Of a DNA stretch of 54,341 nt, positions 13,089 to 41,912 are shown piece by piece; position 1 is the first letter of the stretch; every line of letters starts with the position of its first letter. A program made the position numbers and the translations under genes. The DNA comes from Olleya sp. (GTDB lineage Bacteria; Bacteroidota; Bacteroidia; Flavobacteriales; Flavobacteriaceae). A model generated the notes under the pieces. The model ran no database searches. It was given only the letters and a program-made list of their open reading frames with translations, and was not told the DNA's origin. The DNA is taken from the NCBI GenBank assembly GCA_023300575.1, contig JALZUT010000081.1, positions 1 to 54,341 of the forward strand, read 5' to 3'.

Positions 13089-14219
13089 TTATAAGCGATT
13101 ATCCATTTGTTTAACCATCTTATCTTTCCATGGTCTAAAATCACCCACTAAGATATGTTTTCTTGCTTCCTTTACTAACCATAAATAGAATCCTAAATTA
13201 TGGATAGTTGCTATTTGCTTGCCTAGTAATTCATTTACAGTAAATAAATGACGTAGGTATGCTTTACTATATTCTGTATCTACATACGTAATACCCATTT
13301 CGTCTATTGGAGAAAAGTCGTCACGCCATTTTAAATTTTTGATATTAATAGAGCCATATGCTGTAAATAACATTCCGTTTCTAGCATTACGCGTTGGCAT
13401 TACACAGTCAAACATATCAACACCTAAAGCAATGTTTTCTAAAATATTTATTGGTGTACCAACACCCATCAAGTAACGTGGTTTATCTTCTGGTAAAATA
13501 GCTGTAACAATCTCTGTCATAGCGTAAAGTTCTTCTGCTGGCTCTCCAACAGATAGTCCACCAATTGCGTTACCTACTGCTCCAACACCTGCTATATATT
13601 CGGCAGATTGTTTTCTTAGATCTTTATAAGTACTTCCTTGAACTATAGGGAAAAACGCTTGAGAATAATCGTACTTTAAAGGTGTTTTTTCTAAATGAGT
13701 TATACAACGCTCTAACCAACGGTGTGTCATATGCATCGATCGTCTTGCGTAATTATAATCACATGGATAAGGAGTACACTCGTCAAAAGCCATAATAATA
13801 TCTGCTCCTATACTACGTTGGATTTCCATGACATTCTCTGGTGTAAACATATGGTAACTACCATCAATATGAGATTTAAACTTGACGCCTTCTTCTTTAA
13901 TTTTATTATTTGAAGACAAAGAATATACTTGATAACCACCAGAATCGGTTAAAATATTACGATCCCAGTTCATAAACTTATGCAAACCACCAGCTTTTTC
14001 AATAATATCAATCTGAGGTTTTAAATATAAATGATAAGTGTTTCCTAATATAATATCTGCATTTATATCCTCTTTTAATTCTCTTTGGTGTACGCCTTTT
14101 ACAGAAGCGACGGTACCAACAGGCATAAAAATAGGCGTTTCTATTACACCATGATCGGTTGTAATTACTCCTGCTCTTGCATTACTTTGTGTGTCTTTTG
14201 CTTTTAAATCGAAAGTCAT
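13089..14219 (-). CDS. tgt: tRNA-guanine transglycosylase
   Basis: TPIFMPVGT, GNTYHL, TDSGGYQ, DMFDCVMPTRNAR; start trimmed to ATG at 14219. Confidence 0.97.
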   Translation of the reverse strand: MTFDLKAKDTQSNARAGVITTDHGVIETPIFMPVGTVASVKGVHQRELKEDINADIILGNTYHLYLKPQIDIIEKAGGLHKFMNWDRNILTDSGGYQVYSLSSNNKIKEEGVKFKSHIDGSYHMFTPENVMEIQRSIGADIIMAFDECTPYPCDYNYARRSMHMTHRWLERCITHLEKTPLKYDYSQAFFPIVQGSTYKDLRKQSAEYIAGVGAVGNAIGGLSVGEPAEELYAMTEIVTAILPEDKPRYLMGVGTPINILENIALGVDMFDCVMPTRNARNGMLFTAYGSINIKNLKWRDDFSPIDEMGITYVDTEYSKAYLRHLFTVNELLGKQIATIHNLGFYLWLVKEARKHILVGDFRPWKDKMVKQMDNRL

Positions 14220-34350: not shown

Positions 34351-36318
34351 TTATTGCAATTCTTTTTTAACTTGTTTTAAAGCCTCTTCATTGATAGAGA
34401 CTTTATACTTTTTTGCTAAACTAGCTAACCATTGTTCTTCTGTTTTTTGTTGAAAGTCACTAATTACATTTCCTTTAGCTTCTTCAAATGTTTTTTCTGT
34501 TTTTGATAATACTTCTTTTACTTTAACAACACTATAAGCTTCATTGTGTCTAAATATATTGGACACTCCTATATTCATTTTAAATCCCTTAGGTAAAGTT
34601 TGATGTGAGAGGTCTAAAGTATCTACAATAAAACTAACATTGATTTTATTATCAGAGTTTAATTCACTTTTTATATCCTCTATTGTTTTATTTTTTCCTA
34701 ATAGTTTAGTTGTCTTTTTTATAATACTTTTTGAAGCAGAAGACGCGACAATTGCATCAACACGCTCATTAAAAAAATAGTCTGCTTTATTAGCTAAATA
34801 ATAATCCATTAATCCTACAGAATCTGTTTTGGCTACATTCCAAATTTGAGTTTCCATTAAATCAAAAAGTAACAGACCATCACGATATTCGGTAAGTATT
34901 TGGGCATATTCTTTGTTTTCGTTTTCTAGATTTTCTTCTTGGTATTGTAGTAAAGTACTTTCTAAAAAAGCTTTATAGTTATCTGCTAACAATTTATCAA
35001 ACGGGATTTTGGCTTGACGTCTACGTTGACTTTTAGATAAAAATTCAACAAACTCTTTTTGTCTTATTTGTTTTTTATTTAAAGTAAATAAAATGACTTC
35101 TCCGTTAAAATCTGATGGCACTGTCCATGAGCTTTTAAAAAAATCGTCCGTCAATATAGCTTCTATAGCTTTTAAATTTGGTTGCTTGTCCGAGACATCG
35201 TAACGTGTCAATAATTTCTCGAACCTAGAATTATTAATAACCTTAGAACGCGAGTCTCGTTTTACTTTATCTTTAAGTTCTGCTTCTAATTCTTCAAAAG
35301 GTTTTACTCCTTCTTTACCCAATAATTTTACTATGTGATATCCAAATTCTGATTTAAAGGGTTTACTAACTTGGTTTACCTCTTTTAGTCCAAATGCTTC
35401 TTTTTCAAAAACCTTAGAACTTAATTGACCAGCAGAAAACGTAGTCAGTTCTCCTCCATTAGCACTAGAACTTTTATCTTCAGAAAATTGTTTGGCTAAT
35501 GCTTCAAAATCTTCACCTTGTGTAATACGTTTATGTATTTCGTTAATCCGATCTTGTGCAGATTGATGATTGTACCCTTCATGGTTATCATGACCTAGAT
35601 CTTTTTCATTAAGCATAATGTGAGCAACCGTTACCTCTCCTCTATTCTGGCGCTTATCTTTTACTTGTACAATATGAAAACCAAATTGTGTTCTAAAGGG
35701 TTGAGACCATTGTCCAACCTCTGTATTATAGGCAGCGTTTTCAAAATCATACACCATTTTAAAAGCTGTAAAATAACCTAGCTCTTCAGCAAAAAGTGTG
35801 CGTCCATTATGGATGTCTTTTTTTAAGGCTTCAAAACCTTCAACTATAGCACGTTTACGTAGTTTATCTATTTCTTGTTTTGCTAAAAGCACTTGTTTAT
35901 CACTTACATTTTCATCAATTCTAACTAAGATATGGTTAGCGTCAACTTCAGTTTTCAGCCTATCATAAGCTTCCTTAACCACTTTATCTGTGACTTCATT
36001 ATTGCTTAAATAATTTTTAGATAATTGATTTTTATAGCTACCAAACTCTCTTAAATAAGATGGCTTTTGATCTAAACCGATAACTTTTGCTTCGGTGATT
36101 TTAAGTTTATACTTAACAAATAAGTCTAAGTAGTTATTAATATCTTTTTGCGAGTCATCTTTAACTAAATCTAAATTCTTACTGTAGACACGCTTAAATT
36201 CTGAAGTATAAACAGGTGTGTCGTCAACAGTAAATAAAACGGTTTTGTTTTGTGCGTTTAAAGTTAAACAAGACACAAAAAAAATTAAATTAAAAATAAT
36301 AGATTGTTTCATTTTCAT
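34351..36318 (-). CDS. Periplasmic parvulin-type PPIase (SurA-like)
   Basis: Signal peptide; NHILV, TQFGFHI, AHIML, FEALAKQFSED, SEFGYHI. Confidence 0.88.
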   Translation of the reverse strand: MKMKQSIIFNLIFFVSCLTLNAQNKTVLFTVDDTPVYTSEFKRVYSKNLDLVKDDSQKDINNYLDLFVKYKLKITEAKVIGLDQKPSYLREFGSYKNQLSKNYLSNNEVTDKVVKEAYDRLKTEVDANHILVRIDENVSDKQVLLAKQEIDKLRKRAIVEGFEALKKDIHNGRTLFAEELGYFTAFKMVYDFENAAYNTEVGQWSQPFRTQFGFHIVQVKDKRQNRGEVTVAHIMLNEKDLGHDNHEGYNHQSAQDRINEIHKRITQGEDFEALAKQFSEDKSSSANGGELTTFSAGQLSSKVFEKEAFGLKEVNQVSKPFKSEFGYHIVKLLGKEGVKPFEELEAELKDKVKRDSRSKVINNSRFEKLLTRYDVSDKQPNLKAIEAILTDDFFKSSWTVPSDFNGEVILFTLNKKQIRQKEFVEFLSKSQRRRQAKIPFDKLLADNYKAFLESTLLQYQEENLENENKEYAQILTEYRDGLLLFDLMETQIWNVAKTDSVGLMDYYLANKADYFFNERVDAIVASSASKSIIKKTTKLLGKNKTIEDIKSELNSDNKINVSFIVDTLDLSHQTLPKGFKMNIGVSNIFRHNEAYSVVKVKEVLSKTEKTFEEAKGNVISDFQQKTEEQWLASLAKKYKVSINEEALKQVKKELQ

Positions 36319-36541
36319 AATTAAAAGAGACGTTAAGCAATGACTACAAAAATAGTAATATTACGCTATAATACAAGTGCAATCACAAACGATAAACGTA
36401 AAAACAATTACTATTAGTATTAGACTATAAATTAGTTAGTATTTTTGAATAAAAATACTTTAACGACTATCCTAATAACTTTAGCTATTGTAATTCTACA
36501 GTTTCTATTTTTTTATTAGATTTATTTAAATATTTTTATAA

Positions 36542-36994
36542 ATGAAATATACCACGCAAATAACTATAAATAAACCTTTAGCAGATTGCTTTAGAACACT
36601 AGACAATCATGAAAACAAAAAACATTGGCAAGCGGGTTTGGTTAGTTATGAGCATATTTCTGGAGATCCAGGTACTGTAAATGCAAAAATGAAATTAAAT
36701 TACAATTTTGGCAAACGCAAAATGAGTCTTATCGAAACCATTACGCATAAAGAAAAAAATAAAGCTTATCACTTTAATTTTGATTCTAATGGCATGCATA
36801 ATATACAACAAAACTTTTTTGAAGCTGTAGATAAAAATACGACAAAATGGACTATCAAAAACGAATTTGCACCTACTAATTTTTCTATGCGTTTTATAAC
36901 TATGCTAATGCCAAAAGCATTTAAAAAACAGACCTATAAATACTTAACCAATTTTAAAGCTTTTACTGAAAGCGAAACTTCTTTAGCTAAATAA
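36542..36994 (+). CDS. SRPBCC (START-like) family protein
   Basis: MKYTTQITINKP...W pattern, 150 aa. Confidence 0.75.
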   Translation: MKYTTQITINKPLADCFRTLDNHENKKHWQAGLVSYEHISGDPGTVNAKMKLNYNFGKRKMSLIETITHKEKNKAYHFNFDSNGMHNIQQNFFEAVDKNTTKWTIKNEFAPTNFSMRFITMLMPKAFKKQTYKYLTNFKAFTESETSLAK

Positions 36995-36997
36995 ACG

Positions 36998-37240
36998 ATG
37001 AGACAACTAAAACTAATATGGGATTTTAAAGGTCCTGACGCATTAAAAATTGCAGAACACCACGAAATACATCTTAAAGAATACATTACTATCCAGAAAA
37101 CAGAATTAAACGTTACTGGTTTTGAGCAATTAAGTGACATGCACAGCATTGCGTTTATGGTAGTAAATGAAGTCGAAATGAAACCTATACGTGATGCTTT
37201 AAAACCACATCGTGGACAGGTTTATACTCATAATACATAG
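36998..37240 (+). CDS. Conserved hypothetical protein
   Basis: KLIWDFKGP...HHEIHL...RDALKPHRGQ; 3 bp after the SRPBCC gene. Confidence 0.7.
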   Translation: MRQLKLIWDFKGPDALKIAEHHEIHLKEYITIQKTELNVTGFEQLSDMHSIAFMVVNEVEMKPIRDALKPHRGQVYTHNT

Positions 37241-37297
37241 TTAAAAAAATAAGTTTTAAAATAAATCTGTTTACTTTTGATAAATAATTAATTTATT

Positions 37298-38410
37298 ATG
37301 AAAAAAGCTTTTATTACCTCACTTATAGTTATATCATATTTTACTATTTATGGCTGTAATAAAAATGATGAAGCTACAGAAACAGTAAATATAATTACAA
37401 CAGATATTTCAGTATCATCAGCTGTAAGTACAATTATATGGACAGATAATTCTGATTTAAACCAGCAGTTAAATACTGCATTAGCATATAATTATGGAAC
37501 TGCTTTAGTAAGTCAGACTGAAACAGCATTAGATTTTAATTCTAATATGACGCAAGTTATTGCGACAATAGATTTTAAAACACAATTCCAAAGTTTTTAT
37601 AATGATACAAACCCATCTAACAATACGGTTACTATTAACTTAGTACAAGAGAGTCTAACTACAGAAGGTGTTTTTCTAAAAGCAGATGGACCAGGAAACA
37701 CCTATAATTTAATAACCTCTGTACTTGCTCCAGGAGCTAACCCAATAGAAACGCCAGATTGTAGTCATAATGCTTTTGGAAATCATATTGACGAGGTTTT
37801 TGACAATGACTTAAACACTAACGTATTTAGATTTTATTTACATACAACGCCTGACGATGACCGTTGTATTAATTTTGACAGGCAACGTAATGAAATAAAA
37901 AGCTACAGTCAGTCACCAGATAATTTATTAGGTATAGAAAACGAAACTGTGGTTTATAAATGGAAATTTAAGTTACCAACTGGTTTTCAATCTTCAACAA
38001 ATTTTACACACATACATCAATTAAAATCTGTTGGTGGCGCTTTAGAAAGTATGCCAATTTATACCTTAACTACTAGAAAAGGCACTCCTGATAGAATAGA
38101 ATTACGCTATGCAGAAACAGATAACCAAATTACTTTGTTACAAACAGACTTAGCCCCTTTTTTAGATACTTGGGTAGAAGTAACAGAAACTATTAAATAT
38201 AGTACAAATGGTACTTATGATATAGAAATAAAAACTATAAACGACGGAACTATCTTGTTAACTTACGCTAATCCTTCTATTAATAATTGGCGTCCAAATG
38301 CGGAATTTGTTAGACCTAAATGGGGTATTTACAGAAGTATAATAAATGTGCAAGATCTTAGAGATGAAGAAGTGCTTTTTGATGAATTTAGTATTACAGA
38401 GATTGAGTAG
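37298..38410 (+). CDS. Lipoprotein with polysaccharide-lyase-like beta-jelly-roll domain
   Basis: Lipobox IYGC; RQRNEI, HIHQLK, RPKWGIYR resemble the R-x-E / Q / K-x-G-x-Y motifs of jelly-roll lyases. Confidence 0.65.
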   Translation: MKKAFITSLIVISYFTIYGCNKNDEATETVNIITTDISVSSAVSTIIWTDNSDLNQQLNTALAYNYGTALVSQTETALDFNSNMTQVIATIDFKTQFQSFYNDTNPSNNTVTINLVQESLTTEGVFLKADGPGNTYNLITSVLAPGANPIETPDCSHNAFGNHIDEVFDNDLNTNVFRFYLHTTPDDDRCINFDRQRNEIKSYSQSPDNLLGIENETVVYKWKFKLPTGFQSSTNFTHIHQLKSVGGALESMPIYTLTTRKGTPDRIELRYAETDNQITLLQTDLAPFLDTWVEVTETIKYSTNGTYDIEIKTINDGTILLTYANPSINNWRPNAEFVRPKWGIYRSIINVQDLRDEEVLFDEFSITEIE

Positions 38411-38414
38411 TTGA

Positions 38415-38445
38415 TTTGACTTTGTAAAAAAACCTGCTAACTTCG
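38415..38445 (+). promoter_or_regulatory. Candidate promoter reading into the cassette gene
   Basis: TTTG (38415-38418), 19 nt spacer, TAACTTCG (38438-38445; one mismatch to TAnnTTTG). Confidence 0.5.
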
Positions 38446-38499
38446 AAAACAATGAAACTGCTGATATAAAATATTGAAACGATTTGATATCATCGTAAC

Positions 38500-39165
38500 G
38501 TTGTAGTGCATTTTAGAAATGAAATACAGAACTAATAAATATCTGACTTTAAACGGAAAAATTCACCAAGTGACACTTCCTTATTCCGCTTACGGAGAAT
38601 GGATAGTTTATGAAAATAATGAACCAAAATTTCACGTAAACATTTTAAATTACGAATCAAAAAGTGATTGTTTAGTATTTGTGATTATGAATGAAAGCAA
38701 ATCGGAATTTAAAAACATTTTGACTGACATAAATAATCGATTTAAAAGAAATCTGACGTTATCCTCAAAAACTAATTTCGGAATTAAAATTAACTCAAGA
38801 CTTGTCGAATCTGAATTAGGTTCGTTACCATTTGAATGGATTAAGCATTATACTGAACTGATAAAAGCACCTTGGGAAAAATATCCAGATAAAGACAAAA
38901 ACGATATGTTTTGGAGAATGGGAAAAGGAGAAGATACATTATCGACTTTTGCTAGATATTATAATGTACTTGACAAAAAAGAAAAGAAAGAATTTGAGAA
39001 AAAATTTAAGCCAGATAATGAATGGACTGAATTTTATGAATAGAAAAAAAACCACTACAACACCGTATAAAATAATTGCGGTTTAGTGCTTAATCAAAGG
39101 TCGTTGCGTGTTTGTAATGTCTGAATTTCCTTCTAAAATTCCTAGCATACAAACCCGCAACTATT
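38500..39165 (+). mobile_element. Integron-like gene cassette (core site, ORF, attC-like element degenerate at its 3' end)
   Basis: GTTGTAGTG (38500-38508) is the exact reverse complement of CACTACAAC (39053-39061); imperfect long hairpin 39071-39165. Confidence 0.6.
38519..39043 (+). CDS. Hypothetical cassette-borne protein with C-terminal PW..WRMG.GE motif
   Basis: 174 aa ORF filling the interval between core and inverse-core sites. Confidence 0.75.
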   Translation: MKYRTNKYLTLNGKIHQVTLPYSAYGEWIVYENNEPKFHVNILNYESKSDCLVFVIMNESKSEFKNILTDINNRFKRNLTLSSKTNFGIKINSRLVESELGSLPFEWIKHYTELIKAPWEKYPDKDKNDMFWRMGKGEDTLSTFARYYNVLDKKEKKEFEKKFKPDNEWTEFYE

Positions 39166-39298
39166 CAAGAACTGTATCAAAAAACAATAAAAAATAGACT
39201 TGTTTTTAAACACTAATCTTCTGTTACGCTTCCAACATTTTATTGAAAACATAATACATAAACGTTACATTATTTTTCGAAAGCAAAATTTAAAACAC

Positions 39299-39329
39299 AA
39301 AAAAGCACAACCTAAAAGTTGTGCTTTTT
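39299..39329 (-). terminator. Terminator after guaB (probably bidirectional)
   Basis: AAAAAGCACAAC-CTAAAA-GTTGTGCTTTTT. Confidence 0.85.
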
Positions 39330-39363
39330 AATATTATAAAATTCCTTTCTGAGAAAGAATTAA

Positions 39364-40833
39364 TTACCTAGAATAATTAGGTGCTTCTTTAGTAATAGTT
39401 ACATCGTGTGGATGACTTTCGTTAATTCCTGAAGCAGTAATTTTTACAAATCTCCCTGTTTCTTTTAAAGTAGCCACATCTTTTGCACCACAATATCCCA
39501 TACCTGCACGTAAACCTCCAATAAATTGGTGGATACTTTCAAAAAGTTCTCCTTTATAAGGTACACGACCTACTATACCTTCTGGTACTAATTTTTTAAT
39601 ATCGTCTTCTACATCTTGGAAGTAACGATCTTTACTACCTTCTTTCATGGCTTCTACAGATCCCATTCCACGATAAGATTTAAATTTACGTCCTTCATAA
39701 ATAATAGTTTCGCCTGGACTTTCTTTTGTTCCTGCTAGAAGTGATCCTAACATTACAGTATCTGCTCCTGCTGCGATAGCTTTAGGGATGTCTCCTGTGT
39801 ATCTAATTCCTCCATCTGCAATAACTGGTACTCCACTTCCTTTAATCGCTGCAGCAACTTCTAATACTGCACTAAACTGAGGAAATCCAACTCCTGCAAC
39901 AACACGTGTTGTACAAATAGAACCTGGTCCAATACCAACTTTTACTGCATCTGCACCAGCTTCTACCAAATATTTAGCTGCTTCTGCAGTTGCGATGTTA
40001 CCAACTATAACGTCTAGTTTAGGAAATTTTTGTTTAATTTCTTTTAAAACAGTAACCACACCTTTAGTATGTCCATGTGCAGTATCTATAACCACAGCAT
40101 CTACACCTGCTTTTACTAAAGCTGATGCTCTATCTACTGCATCAGCTGTTACACCAATTGCTGCTGCAACACGTAATCTTCCAAAAGTATCTTTATTAGC
40201 AAATGGCTTTTGAGTGACTTTAGTAATATCTCTAAAGGTGATTAAACCTACAAGTTTTTCACCTTCAACAATTAAAAGTTTTTCAATTTTATTTTCTTGA
40301 AGAATTTTTTCGGCATCTTTTAAAGAGGTTCCAACAGGTGCAACCACTAAATCTTTACTTGTCATTACTTCTACAATCGCGCGATCGTTTTCATGTTCAA
40401 AACGTAAATCACGATTGGTAACGATACCTTTTAGTAAACCAGCTTCATCAATAATTGGGATTCCTCCAATACTATGTTCGCGCATCGCATTTTTAGCATC
40501 TGCAACAACAGCTGTTAATGGTAAGGTTACAGGATCTATAATCATTCCGCTTTCGGCACGCTTTACTTTACGTACTTTAGTCGCTTGTGCCTCTATAGTC
40601 ATGTTTTTATGTAACACACCTATACCGCCTTCTTGAGCCATAGCAATAGCCATTTGGCTTTCTGTAACAGTATCCATAGCAGCTGATACTATTGGTACGT
40701 TAATGGTAATGTTTCGTGTTAATTTTGATTGAATGTTAACTTCTCGTGGAAGAACTTCAGAAAATGCTGGGACTAAAAGTACGTCGTCGTAAGTAAGACC
40801 TTCTCCAACAATTTTGTTTTCGTGTGCTGTCAT
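39364..40833 (-). CDS. guaB: IMP dehydrogenase
   Basis: [21 protein letters not shown] pair, [17 protein letters not shown]; start trimmed to ATG 40833. Confidence 0.98.
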
Positions 40834-40891
40834 GATGCAATTACAATTAATTGCATACAAATTTAGAACTTTTTTCTATAAAAAGTGCTGT

Positions 40892-41389
40892 TTATTTAGT
40901 TTTCTTAGGAAGTAATAATTGTTTCAGAATTATAAACGCTGAAACTGAATAACTAAGCGTCATTAAAGTCCCTGAAATCATAACAATATATTTCATCCAA
41001 GTTATACCTTTCCAGAGTAAATACAAACCGCCAAAAGTAAAGATTACTGATAGAAAAGGTTCTACCATTAAAACTAGTTTTAATTTATAATTAAGCTGAG
41101 TCGTTGCTAAAATTAAACCTAGTAAAAAGAAAATTAAAGCCATAGATAATATGTGACTGTGCACAATATTAAGCATTTGTTTCTCGGATTTCTTAAACTT
41201 CATTTCGGTAGCTTGCTCATCATTCTCGTTACCTAAATATTGTTCTTCAATACCTTTTGGGTTTACAGAAGACGTATCATTTACAAATAATAACCCTGTA
41301 AAGAACCCTATACTTAACACCATAATAAAAGCGATTAGAAGTGCTTTTAGCTCTTTAGGAAATGTATAAATAAGTCCGTTTAATTGCAT
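40892..41389 (-). CDS. Four-TM membrane protein of unknown function with HxH motif
   Basis: Hydrophobic helices, VHSHILSM; ATG 41389 lies 1 bp after the upstream stop. Confidence 0.7.
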   Translation of the reverse strand: MQLNGLIYTFPKELKALLIAFIMVLSIGFFTGLLFVNDTSSVNPKGIEEQYLGNENDEQATEMKFKKSEKQMLNIVHSHILSMALIFFLLGLILATTQLNYKLKLVLMVEPFLSVIFTFGGLYLLWKGITWMKYIVMISGTLMTLSYSVSAFIILKQLLLPKKTK

Positions 41390-41390
41390 A

Positions 41391-41912
41391 TTATAAGATT
41401 CCTTTTTCATTTAAAACCTTTAAAGAAGCCAGTAAGTCATTCATTGCGTTAGTCATAGAACGCACAGAGATTGTAGCACCCGAAATAGCTATAATATTAT
41501 CACCATGCTGCAATTGATCGTTTTGGGTTTTACCAACAAACTGTTTTAACCAGCGTTTACTACCAATCTCTCCTCCATATTCTTCTCTGTAAATTAAAAC
41601 TTTGGTTTTTTTTACGATTAAATCGGAATCTAATAGCACTAAATAATCAAATTTTGCGGTTTTACTTGGCGCTTTTGCTATATAAGCATAACCTAAAAGT
41701 ATGTTGTTATTTTCAATTTTGAAAAAATTATCGGTTCCAAAAGCCGAAGGTAATTTACTTGAAATAGTTTCAGAAATAGTAAAGGCATTAAATGAAAAAG
41801 CCTCAACATCATACGTTTCTTTAATTTGCTTATCTACTTTTTTCTGAATCTTTGATGGAAGACCAAAAGCCAATAATGTTAACGCTAATAGTAATATCGA
41901 AATTTGTTTCAT
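41391..41912 (-). CDS. Exported FMN-binding (flavinylation-motif) protein
   Basis: Signal peptide, YREEYGGEI, WLKQF, ISGATIS as in RnfG/NqrC-type FMN_bind domains. Confidence 0.85.
   Translation of the reverse strand: MKQISILLLALTLLAFGLPSKIQKKVDKQIKETYDVEAFSFNAFTISETISSKLPSAFGTDNFFKIENNNILLGYAYIAKAPSKTAKFDYLVLLDSDLIVKKTKVLIYREEYGGEIGSKRWLKQFVGKTQNDQLQHGDNIIAISGATISVRSMTNAMNDLLASLKVLNEKGIL

Follow-up and report, generated by a model that had tools for sequence, protein, structure and literature searches.

In integrons, a tyrosine recombinase heads a long array of promoterless one-gene cassettes, each bounded by a GTT core (consensus GTTRRRY) and a complementary AAC inverse core and followed by a hairpin, attC, that moves with the cassette. 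The crossover falls after the first base of GTT, the bottom strand of the hairpin folds better, and the integrase gene, the entry site attI and the promoter Pc stand together in one platform. Recognition of the attC bottom strand is treated in part of the preprint 10.1101/2022.09.11.507474, another passage of which describes the insertion of single cassettes at scattered chromosomal sites (attG), with the integrase acting in trans and expression occurring beside a promoter; attG is ordinary genome sequence unlike attC or attI, and its promoters are incidental. Passages of PMC9024848 describe CALINs, attC-bounded cassettes without a nearby integrase gene, and state that integrons are nearly absent from Bacteroidetes; a section of PMC11523902 reports no integrons by IntegronFinder in Elizabethkingia anophelis. 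The relevant passages of PMC4889954 and 10.1101/2024.07.02.601686 hold definitions only. The full texts covered by the literature search listed no description of the cassette and pad system presented here.

The window, that is, the whole 54,341-nt stretch of Olleya sp. DNA that was analysed, is contig C81 of a 2.3 Mb genome in 253 contigs that is 76% complete (G000). As in integrons, its locus contains a promoterless one-gene cassette between a GTT core and a complementary AAC inverse core, a downstream hairpin that appears to move with the cassette, a crossover that sequence comparison places after the first base of GTT and a promoter-like motif ahead of the entry site; in the wider system the bottom strand folds better, and a tyrosine recombinase heads a long array. 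Unlike in integrons, the recombinase is without the insertion specific to IntI and, in most loci seen, its gene points at the array, the site geometry is AAC-N3-box...box'-N5-6-GTT with cores that rarely fit GTTRRRY, and the promoter and entry site are detached from the recombinase gene. This entry unit, which we call the pad, has an attC-like fold, occurs in up to 18 copies in a genome and mostly carries a single cassette per copy, so that integrase gene, attI and Pc are not together in one platform. Because the tests for IntI and for a single platform failed, we do not class the system as an integron, although it appears to work like one. It resembles CALINs in having an attC-bounded cassette without a nearby integrase gene, but the window locus has one attC-like site where a CALIN has two or more, the system's recombinase is not IntI, each site has its own conserved promoter-like pad of which empty alleles exist, and letter-identical cassettes tie pads to a recombinase-headed array. 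With attG insertion it shares single cassettes at scattered chromosomal sites, a recombinase that probably acts in trans and a position beside a likely promoter, whereas the pad recurs as a conserved element that has its own promoter motif and a hairpin with co-varying stem pairs. Like Flavo-1 RNA (RF01705) and other intergenic repeats of flavobacteria, the pad is short, structured and multi-copy and lies between genes, but Flavo-1 is a separate neighbour of some pads, and its matches do not lie on them.

The cassette runs on the forward strand from the core GTTGTAGTG (38500..38508; GTTGTAG in its first seven bases), 10 nt before the ATG, through an ORF for a 174-aa protein of unknown function (38519..39043) to the inverse core CACTACAAC (39053..39061), the exact reverse complement of the core, 9 nt past the stop. 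An earlier note, made from the letters of the window, had placed both cores here, with both spacings exact. Six of the 1938 ATG ORFs of at least 100 aa in G000 were flanked by a GTT-led 9-mer and its complement, and three of these six look like low-complexity matches; the 9-mer pair is therefore rare but no proof alone, and we take the family-wide data, rather than the pair, as the comparative proof of a cassette. Relatives of the cargo ORF with 72–80% identity were found in cassette arrays of three other genera. The similarity to these three foreign copies begins at GTT or one base earlier and stops at AAC, the neighbouring genes differ around each copy, and the core pair co-varies with the copy, being GTTGTAG/CTACAAC in the window and GTTGTAC/GTACAAC in the foreign copies. 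By sequence comparison, the window ORF is a real mobile gene cassette, and the earlier note's idea of an integron-like cassette inserted at a chromosomal site is supported by the foreign copies, by other cargo in a congener and by empty sites.

The attC bodies of the three foreign copies are unlike that of the window, which simple cassette movement does not account for. One cassette thus occurs with three attC bodies in four genomes (L137–L139 against window 39059–39166), the split lying right after AAC, which suggests that cassettes can swap hairpins. The cargo family comprises 27 database proteins, the window's own included, with relatives in Algibacter, Psychroserpens, Tenacibaculum, Winogradskyella and Gramella. 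The cargo had no match in Pfam or NCBIfam, matched PADLOC and PHROGs only at E values above 0.01, and gave no structural match among PDB folds (AlphaFold model pLDDT 79.9); the Atlas, queried with the cargo homologue P0004, returned hypothetical-protein clusters only. By itself, the window's cargo protein adds little.

The attC-like site (39059..39266, forward strand) is 208 nt long instead of about 124 nt. On its left side, AAC is followed by 3 nt, the left box GTATA (39065–39069) and an inner hairpin (39103–39161); on its right side, the box AATAC (39253–39257, one mismatch) is followed by 6 nt and GTT, which ends at 39266. The site is 93% identical to an intact copy on contig C13 of G000 and up to 95% identical to copies in congeners, so the element does recur in this genome and its relatives, as had been envisaged. 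When 39050–39175 was folded as single-stranded DNA, a free energy of −17.5 kcal/mol was obtained (z = −3.7), which 0 of 200 shuffles equalled. The two hairpin arms proposed earlier (39071–39084 and 39151–39165) are present as sequences but do not pair with each other in the minimum-energy fold, which pairs 39151–39161 with 39103–39114 in the window and in the intact sister site alike; in this attC type the outer box stem is absent from the energy minimum. The statement that no closing core follows 39165 did not survive: the right box and GTT lie at 39253–39266, and a pad arm lies at 39264–39281.

Just ahead of the right box, a foreign piece of about 86 nt (39167..39252, no strand assigned) is inserted, which is absent from the intact C13 sister. 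Two further attC types have the same start of this piece in the matching place, one on contig C40 of G000 (near 13731–13775, L177) and one in a metagenome locus (L268, near 2003); because of this recurrence, the piece is likely to be the left-end remnant of an element targeting these hairpins. No transposase linked to it was seen. The insert was not found in 150 family genomes, in each of which only five candidates were scored, and one weak genome match was rejected as chance. In metagenomes, a first pattern returned nothing and a second returned one contig, which ended before any gene. Runs X1–X4 belong to one study, possibly including the source sample; contigs of runs X1–X3 span 39226–39603 without differences, other contigs in the four runs match 39151–39255, one of them continuing into different sequence, and among the contigs listed for these runs none bridges the entire attC. 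The piece inserted in its attC, and not, as had been suggested, a missing core, probably slows the cassette and may have immobilised it.

Upstream of the cassette, a promoter-like motif (38416..38445, forward strand) consists of TTG at 38416–38418, 19 nt and TAACTTCG at 38438–38445. In promoters of this kind, a −33 TTG stands at a set spacing from the −7 box. Among 56 pads, 50 have a TTG-to-TA distance of 19–21 nt, and the two boxes show 82–100% conservation. The box TAACTTCG has one mismatch to the Bacteroidota −7 consensus TAnnTTTG given in a passage of PMC9723704. The pad is likely, judging from these motifs, to supply the promoter. The recombination site of the pad (38442..38502, forward strand) starts with a left arm (38442–38458) that ends in AAC, followed by a 3-nt spacer, a stem in which TGATAT (38462–38467) pairs with ATATCA (38487–38492), a 7-nt spacer and the crossover point G|TT at 38500/38501. 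The displaced right arm (39264..39281, forward strand), a near reverse complement of 38442–38458, closes the array; in the congener G003, this arm complements the left arm of the G003 pad without a mismatch along 17 nt. An empty pad is about 110 nt long and reads TTG-N19-21-TAACTTCG, arm-AAC, 3 nt, stem-loop, 3–9 nt, GTT-arm'. In an alignment of 43 pads picked from 66 parsed ones, seven of ten stem pairs change on both sides, and 0 of 500 shuffles reached the covariation score. Of the stem cells, 87% pair, compared with 30–47% in slid controls, related copies not being independent. The upstream platform, which had been read as an attI-like site, is by these comparisons not a classical attI but a repeated landing pad that folds in the manner of an attC.

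When G000 and the longer of the fetched loci were searched with two pad profiles (E 0.01), 81 matches were obtained, including 17 in G000, 17 in G003 and 10 in G009. The exact pad pattern, which sets a lower bound, was present in 30 of 301 family genomes with up to 18 copies per genome, and no control sequence matched. Among 12 pattern matches on viral contigs, none had the pad hairpin or the TTG box, and phage and plasmid collections yielded no match. Neither a target duplication nor a terminal inverted repeat was seen at pads, the pad-less sites being too diverged to place the ends, and the arm complementarity halts at the −7 box, short of the left end. A pad in G018 is absent from the same site in all five congeners compared, which are too diverged to fix the pad ends, and G078 has no congener for such a comparison. 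Local tandem duplication accounts for one case of pad spread. The pad was also considered as an ordinary ORF-less cassette, which was rejected because its own core is right of the hairpin and not ahead of the promoter. Over 36000–41500, Rfam placed no family on the pad or the attC and gave one sub-threshold match on the terminator; neither pad nor attC matched Flavo-1 (RF01705), of which there was no copy in that interval. As separate observations, in G018 and G078 Flavo-1 motifs follow empty pads at a distance of about 50–80 nt (L223, L234, L219), and a palindromic repeat of about 23 nt is inserted in the loop or left arm of many pads (L113, L162, L184, L213, L273, L276, L282, L285, L288).

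Among the 81 profile matches, 66 could be parsed and 15 could not; the 66 comprised 30 filled, 8 empty (G000:C49 being a doubtful member) and 28 unclear pads, with scoring confined to the promoter-to-cargo orientation. Most filled pads hold one cassette. The pad core matched the downstream inverse core in at least six of seven bases in 29 of the 44 non-empty pads with a downstream site, while shuffles gave a mean of 1.5 and a maximum of 7. Empty pads terminate in the complement of their own left arm, and this complement was found behind the right box of the attC in 23 of 30 filled pads, where it changes with arm type; the figure comes from the best match within 12 kb, taken without a shuffle control, and no closing arm was found for the other 7 of 30. 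The pattern across alleles is that of a cassette splitting the pad at N|TT, its attC coming to lie ahead of the right arm. In 7 of 7 pads that start with ATT, the A is kept, while GTT is read in the inverse core and at the far end of the cassette; the cassette's G thus sits at the far end, which by sequence comparison fixes the crossover at N|TT.

Empty sites, whose existence had been anticipated, were encountered directly: at the C93 site, G000 has an empty pad and G003 a filled one, and four congeners have none. At the trmD site, so named from what we take the neighbouring protein to be, the G000 pad looks empty, and G003 has a filled pad of another subtype. G089 carries three tandem near-identical pads, of which one is filled, one is empty and one is filled with a different cassette. 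Two empty G089 pads (L269, L271) are perfect palindromes with a 3-nt right spacer, next to filled neighbours with 8-nt spacers; they are possibly products of template-switch correction or recombination scars.

The window's own pad lies between a polysaccharide lyase-domain gene (37298..38410, forward strand; Pfam PF14099 above cut-off), which is outside the element, and a terminator hairpin (39299–39328) with a convergent gene (39299..40860, reverse strand), which we take to be that of IMP dehydrogenase (guaB) from its protein sequence. This downstream flank is kept in 10 of 10 congeners. When the guaB site was compared in these ten, G003 had the same lyase-domain gene and the same pad, but its cargo encodes 540 aa, lies between a 10-nt core pair of its own and is followed by a full attC; a different gene after the same GTT is what the earlier note had looked for in relatives. 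In G006, a degenerate pad stands ahead of another gene, and in seven of the ten congeners no pad-type element was found at the site. G007 has seven pad-like matches farther upstream in the same interval; these copies lie within 9 kb, each ahead of a gene (L104, G007:C1:2114000-2133999), and no attC sites were recognisable with them. The gene content of 37240–39300, from a conserved 80-aa gene to the guaB terminator, differs among the ten congeners examined, and this interval is a hot spot for gene turnover.

There is no recombinase gene within the window, as had been noted, and the further suggestion that the enzyme acts in trans or is lost is supported in its first half: a candidate with its own GTT site is encoded on contig C192. 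G000 has three Phage_integrase matches, two of about 298 aa (XerC/D-sized) and the C192 protein of 396 aa, a co-occurring tyrosine recombinase of the kind sought, with intact catalytic motifs. It matched TIGR02249 with 201.7 bits (cut-off 265) in two stretches, and integron integrase models are among its best NCBIfam matches. Residues 195–242 of VchIntIA (48 residues) face three residues of the C192 protein, which on this alignment is without the IntI-specific insertion. A GTT site follows just past its stop codon, 99 nt from the contig end. In the loci of relatives, judged by eye, such a site follows the recombinase stop in about 19 of 29, is missing in five, and in two the array is divergent. 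In the subgroup L087, L235, L236 and L088, no att-like site follows the stop, nor is there an array within 1.5 kb; pads are abundant in three of the four genomes. The recombinase gene of G007 is frameshifted. Across the family, the recombinase was present in 193 of 301 genomes, namely in 26 of 30 pad genomes and 167 of 271 others (p = 0.008, with kin not independent). At least 12 pads occur in G009, a single contig (99% complete) with two XerC/D-like proteins as its only recombinase matches, and G253, G302 and G330 have pads and no recombinase match at E 1e-45. The G000 assembly, at 76% completeness, may lack a further recombinase.

The orthologue in G003, 75% identical to the C192 recombinase, heads a cassette array. 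Of 26 consecutive pairs in it, 23 have a core that matches the inverse core coming next, against a mean of 2.0 and a maximum of 9 in shuffles, so that copies after different ORFs with complementary cores, as foreseen, do exist. Only 2 of 26 array cores fit GTTRRRY, and the window core GTTGTAG is also off consensus; the bottom strand folds more stably in 25 of 26 array sites. Two distant G003 pads hold cassettes that, together with their attC, agree letter for letter with array members along 1329 and 803 bases; at either end the identity stops at GTT. A second array also contains one of these two cassettes, so its source is ambiguous.

We assign a probability of about 0.74 to the reading that the window ORF is a mobile cassette that splits a repeated pad at G|TT, was placed there by a non-IntI recombinase and is transcribed from the pad promoter. 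The cassette limits, the crossover point, the split pad, the empty and filled alleles and the identity of array and pad cassettes are the comparative results behind it. Under this reading, a recombinase of the C192 type would bind attC and pad alike by their folded bottom strand and excise the cassette at two folded attC sites, and the cassette would be joined to the folded pad by one strand exchange. Replication, by which the exchange is resolved in integrons, would then leave a cassette copy in the array, and the pad promoter would transcribe the cargo, so that the array would be a mostly silent library and the pads single-gene expression slots. Since the pad sequence differs from the site beside the recombinase, we only infer that the same enzyme binds it. 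We see even odds for a wider proposal, a distributed integron: up to about 18 self-contained pads, themselves spreading through the chromosome, would be supplied from a central library by one non-IntI recombinase, and cassettes would be activated by copying into pads, many at a time, rather than by a move to first place in a single array.

In the main rival reading, a selfish repeat of the MITE or REP kind, unrelated to the cassettes and carrying a promoter, happens to make a good secondary target like an attG hot spot, so that cassettes land in pads that did not evolve for them. We regard it as unlikely. Pads are patchy, multi-copy and divided into subtypes, one is missing at the same site in 5 of 5 G018 congeners, and Flavo-1 lies just downstream of three pads with other short repeats in some pad loops, all as a selfish repeat would have it; the attC-like geometry with compensatory stem changes, the co-variation of pad arms with the closing arm and the excess of filled over empty pads (30 to 8, in the one orientation scored) argue the other way, as does, within what the diverged pad-less sites can show, the lack of any visible target duplication or terminal inverted repeat. 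The part of 10.1101/2022.09.11.507474 on attG, moreover, presents these sites as unlike attC in sequence and structure. Identical cassettes in pads and arrays largely refute a second idea, in which complete integron-like loci lost their recombinase genes and decayed to the present pads, leaving the cassette here as a frozen relic. The interrupted attC of the window, the lack of an array-type recombinase in G009 and the degenerate pads in G006 and G007 would suit such decay, yet G000 and G003 have about 17 pads each at unrelated sites against three tyrosine-recombinase matches in G000, near-identical pads carry different cargo, and the site beside the recombinase is a different sequence, and we consider this idea quite improbable.

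Much the same low standing applies to the filling of pads by housekeeping XerC/XerD, or by some enzyme other than the array-linked recombinase: it would account for the 4 of 30 pad genomes without an array-type match and for G009 with its XerC/D-like proteins only, but the crossover and the cassette ends equal those of the recombinase-headed array, and gene loss after the pads were filled would explain G009. Least probable of all, and scarcely credible to us, is a classical IntI integron or CALIN, or else a chance inverted 9-mer beside a terminator-like hairpin. Bottom-strand folding, GTT/AAC cores and the integron integrase models among the best matches recall IntI integrons, but membership is refuted by the split, sub-cut-off TIGR02249 match and by the three residues facing VchIntIA 195–242, GTTRRRY is rare among the 26 cores, and chance is excluded by the foreign copies, the pad core matches and the core pairs of the G003 array.

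With the recombinase family in 193 and the pad in 30 of 301 genomes, a large gene-capture system appears to escape the standard integron search. The pad layout would lift the limit of one promoter per array in integrons, and many cassettes could be expressed simultaneously at separate loci; pads would also explain lone strain-specific genes between conserved flavobacterial genes. As a natural promoter-plus-landing site of about 110 nt, the pad may serve in genetic tools for Bacteroidota, and with this system one could ask if recombination at hairpin sites depends on the domain specific to IntI.

Some cassettes and sites departed from the usual layout. Near 10357 on contig C170 of G000 (L142), a pad after what we take to be a photolyase gene has a two-gene cassette, presumably of the HigB/HigA toxin-antitoxin kind by its look, and the pad cassette on contig C40 of G000 has two genes on the opposite strand. 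In the G007 array (L103, G007:C1:1090500-1110499; also L023), two more kinds of insertion element, presumably IS110-like (about 330 aa) and IS1182-like (519 aa), lie at fixed positions inside attC sites.
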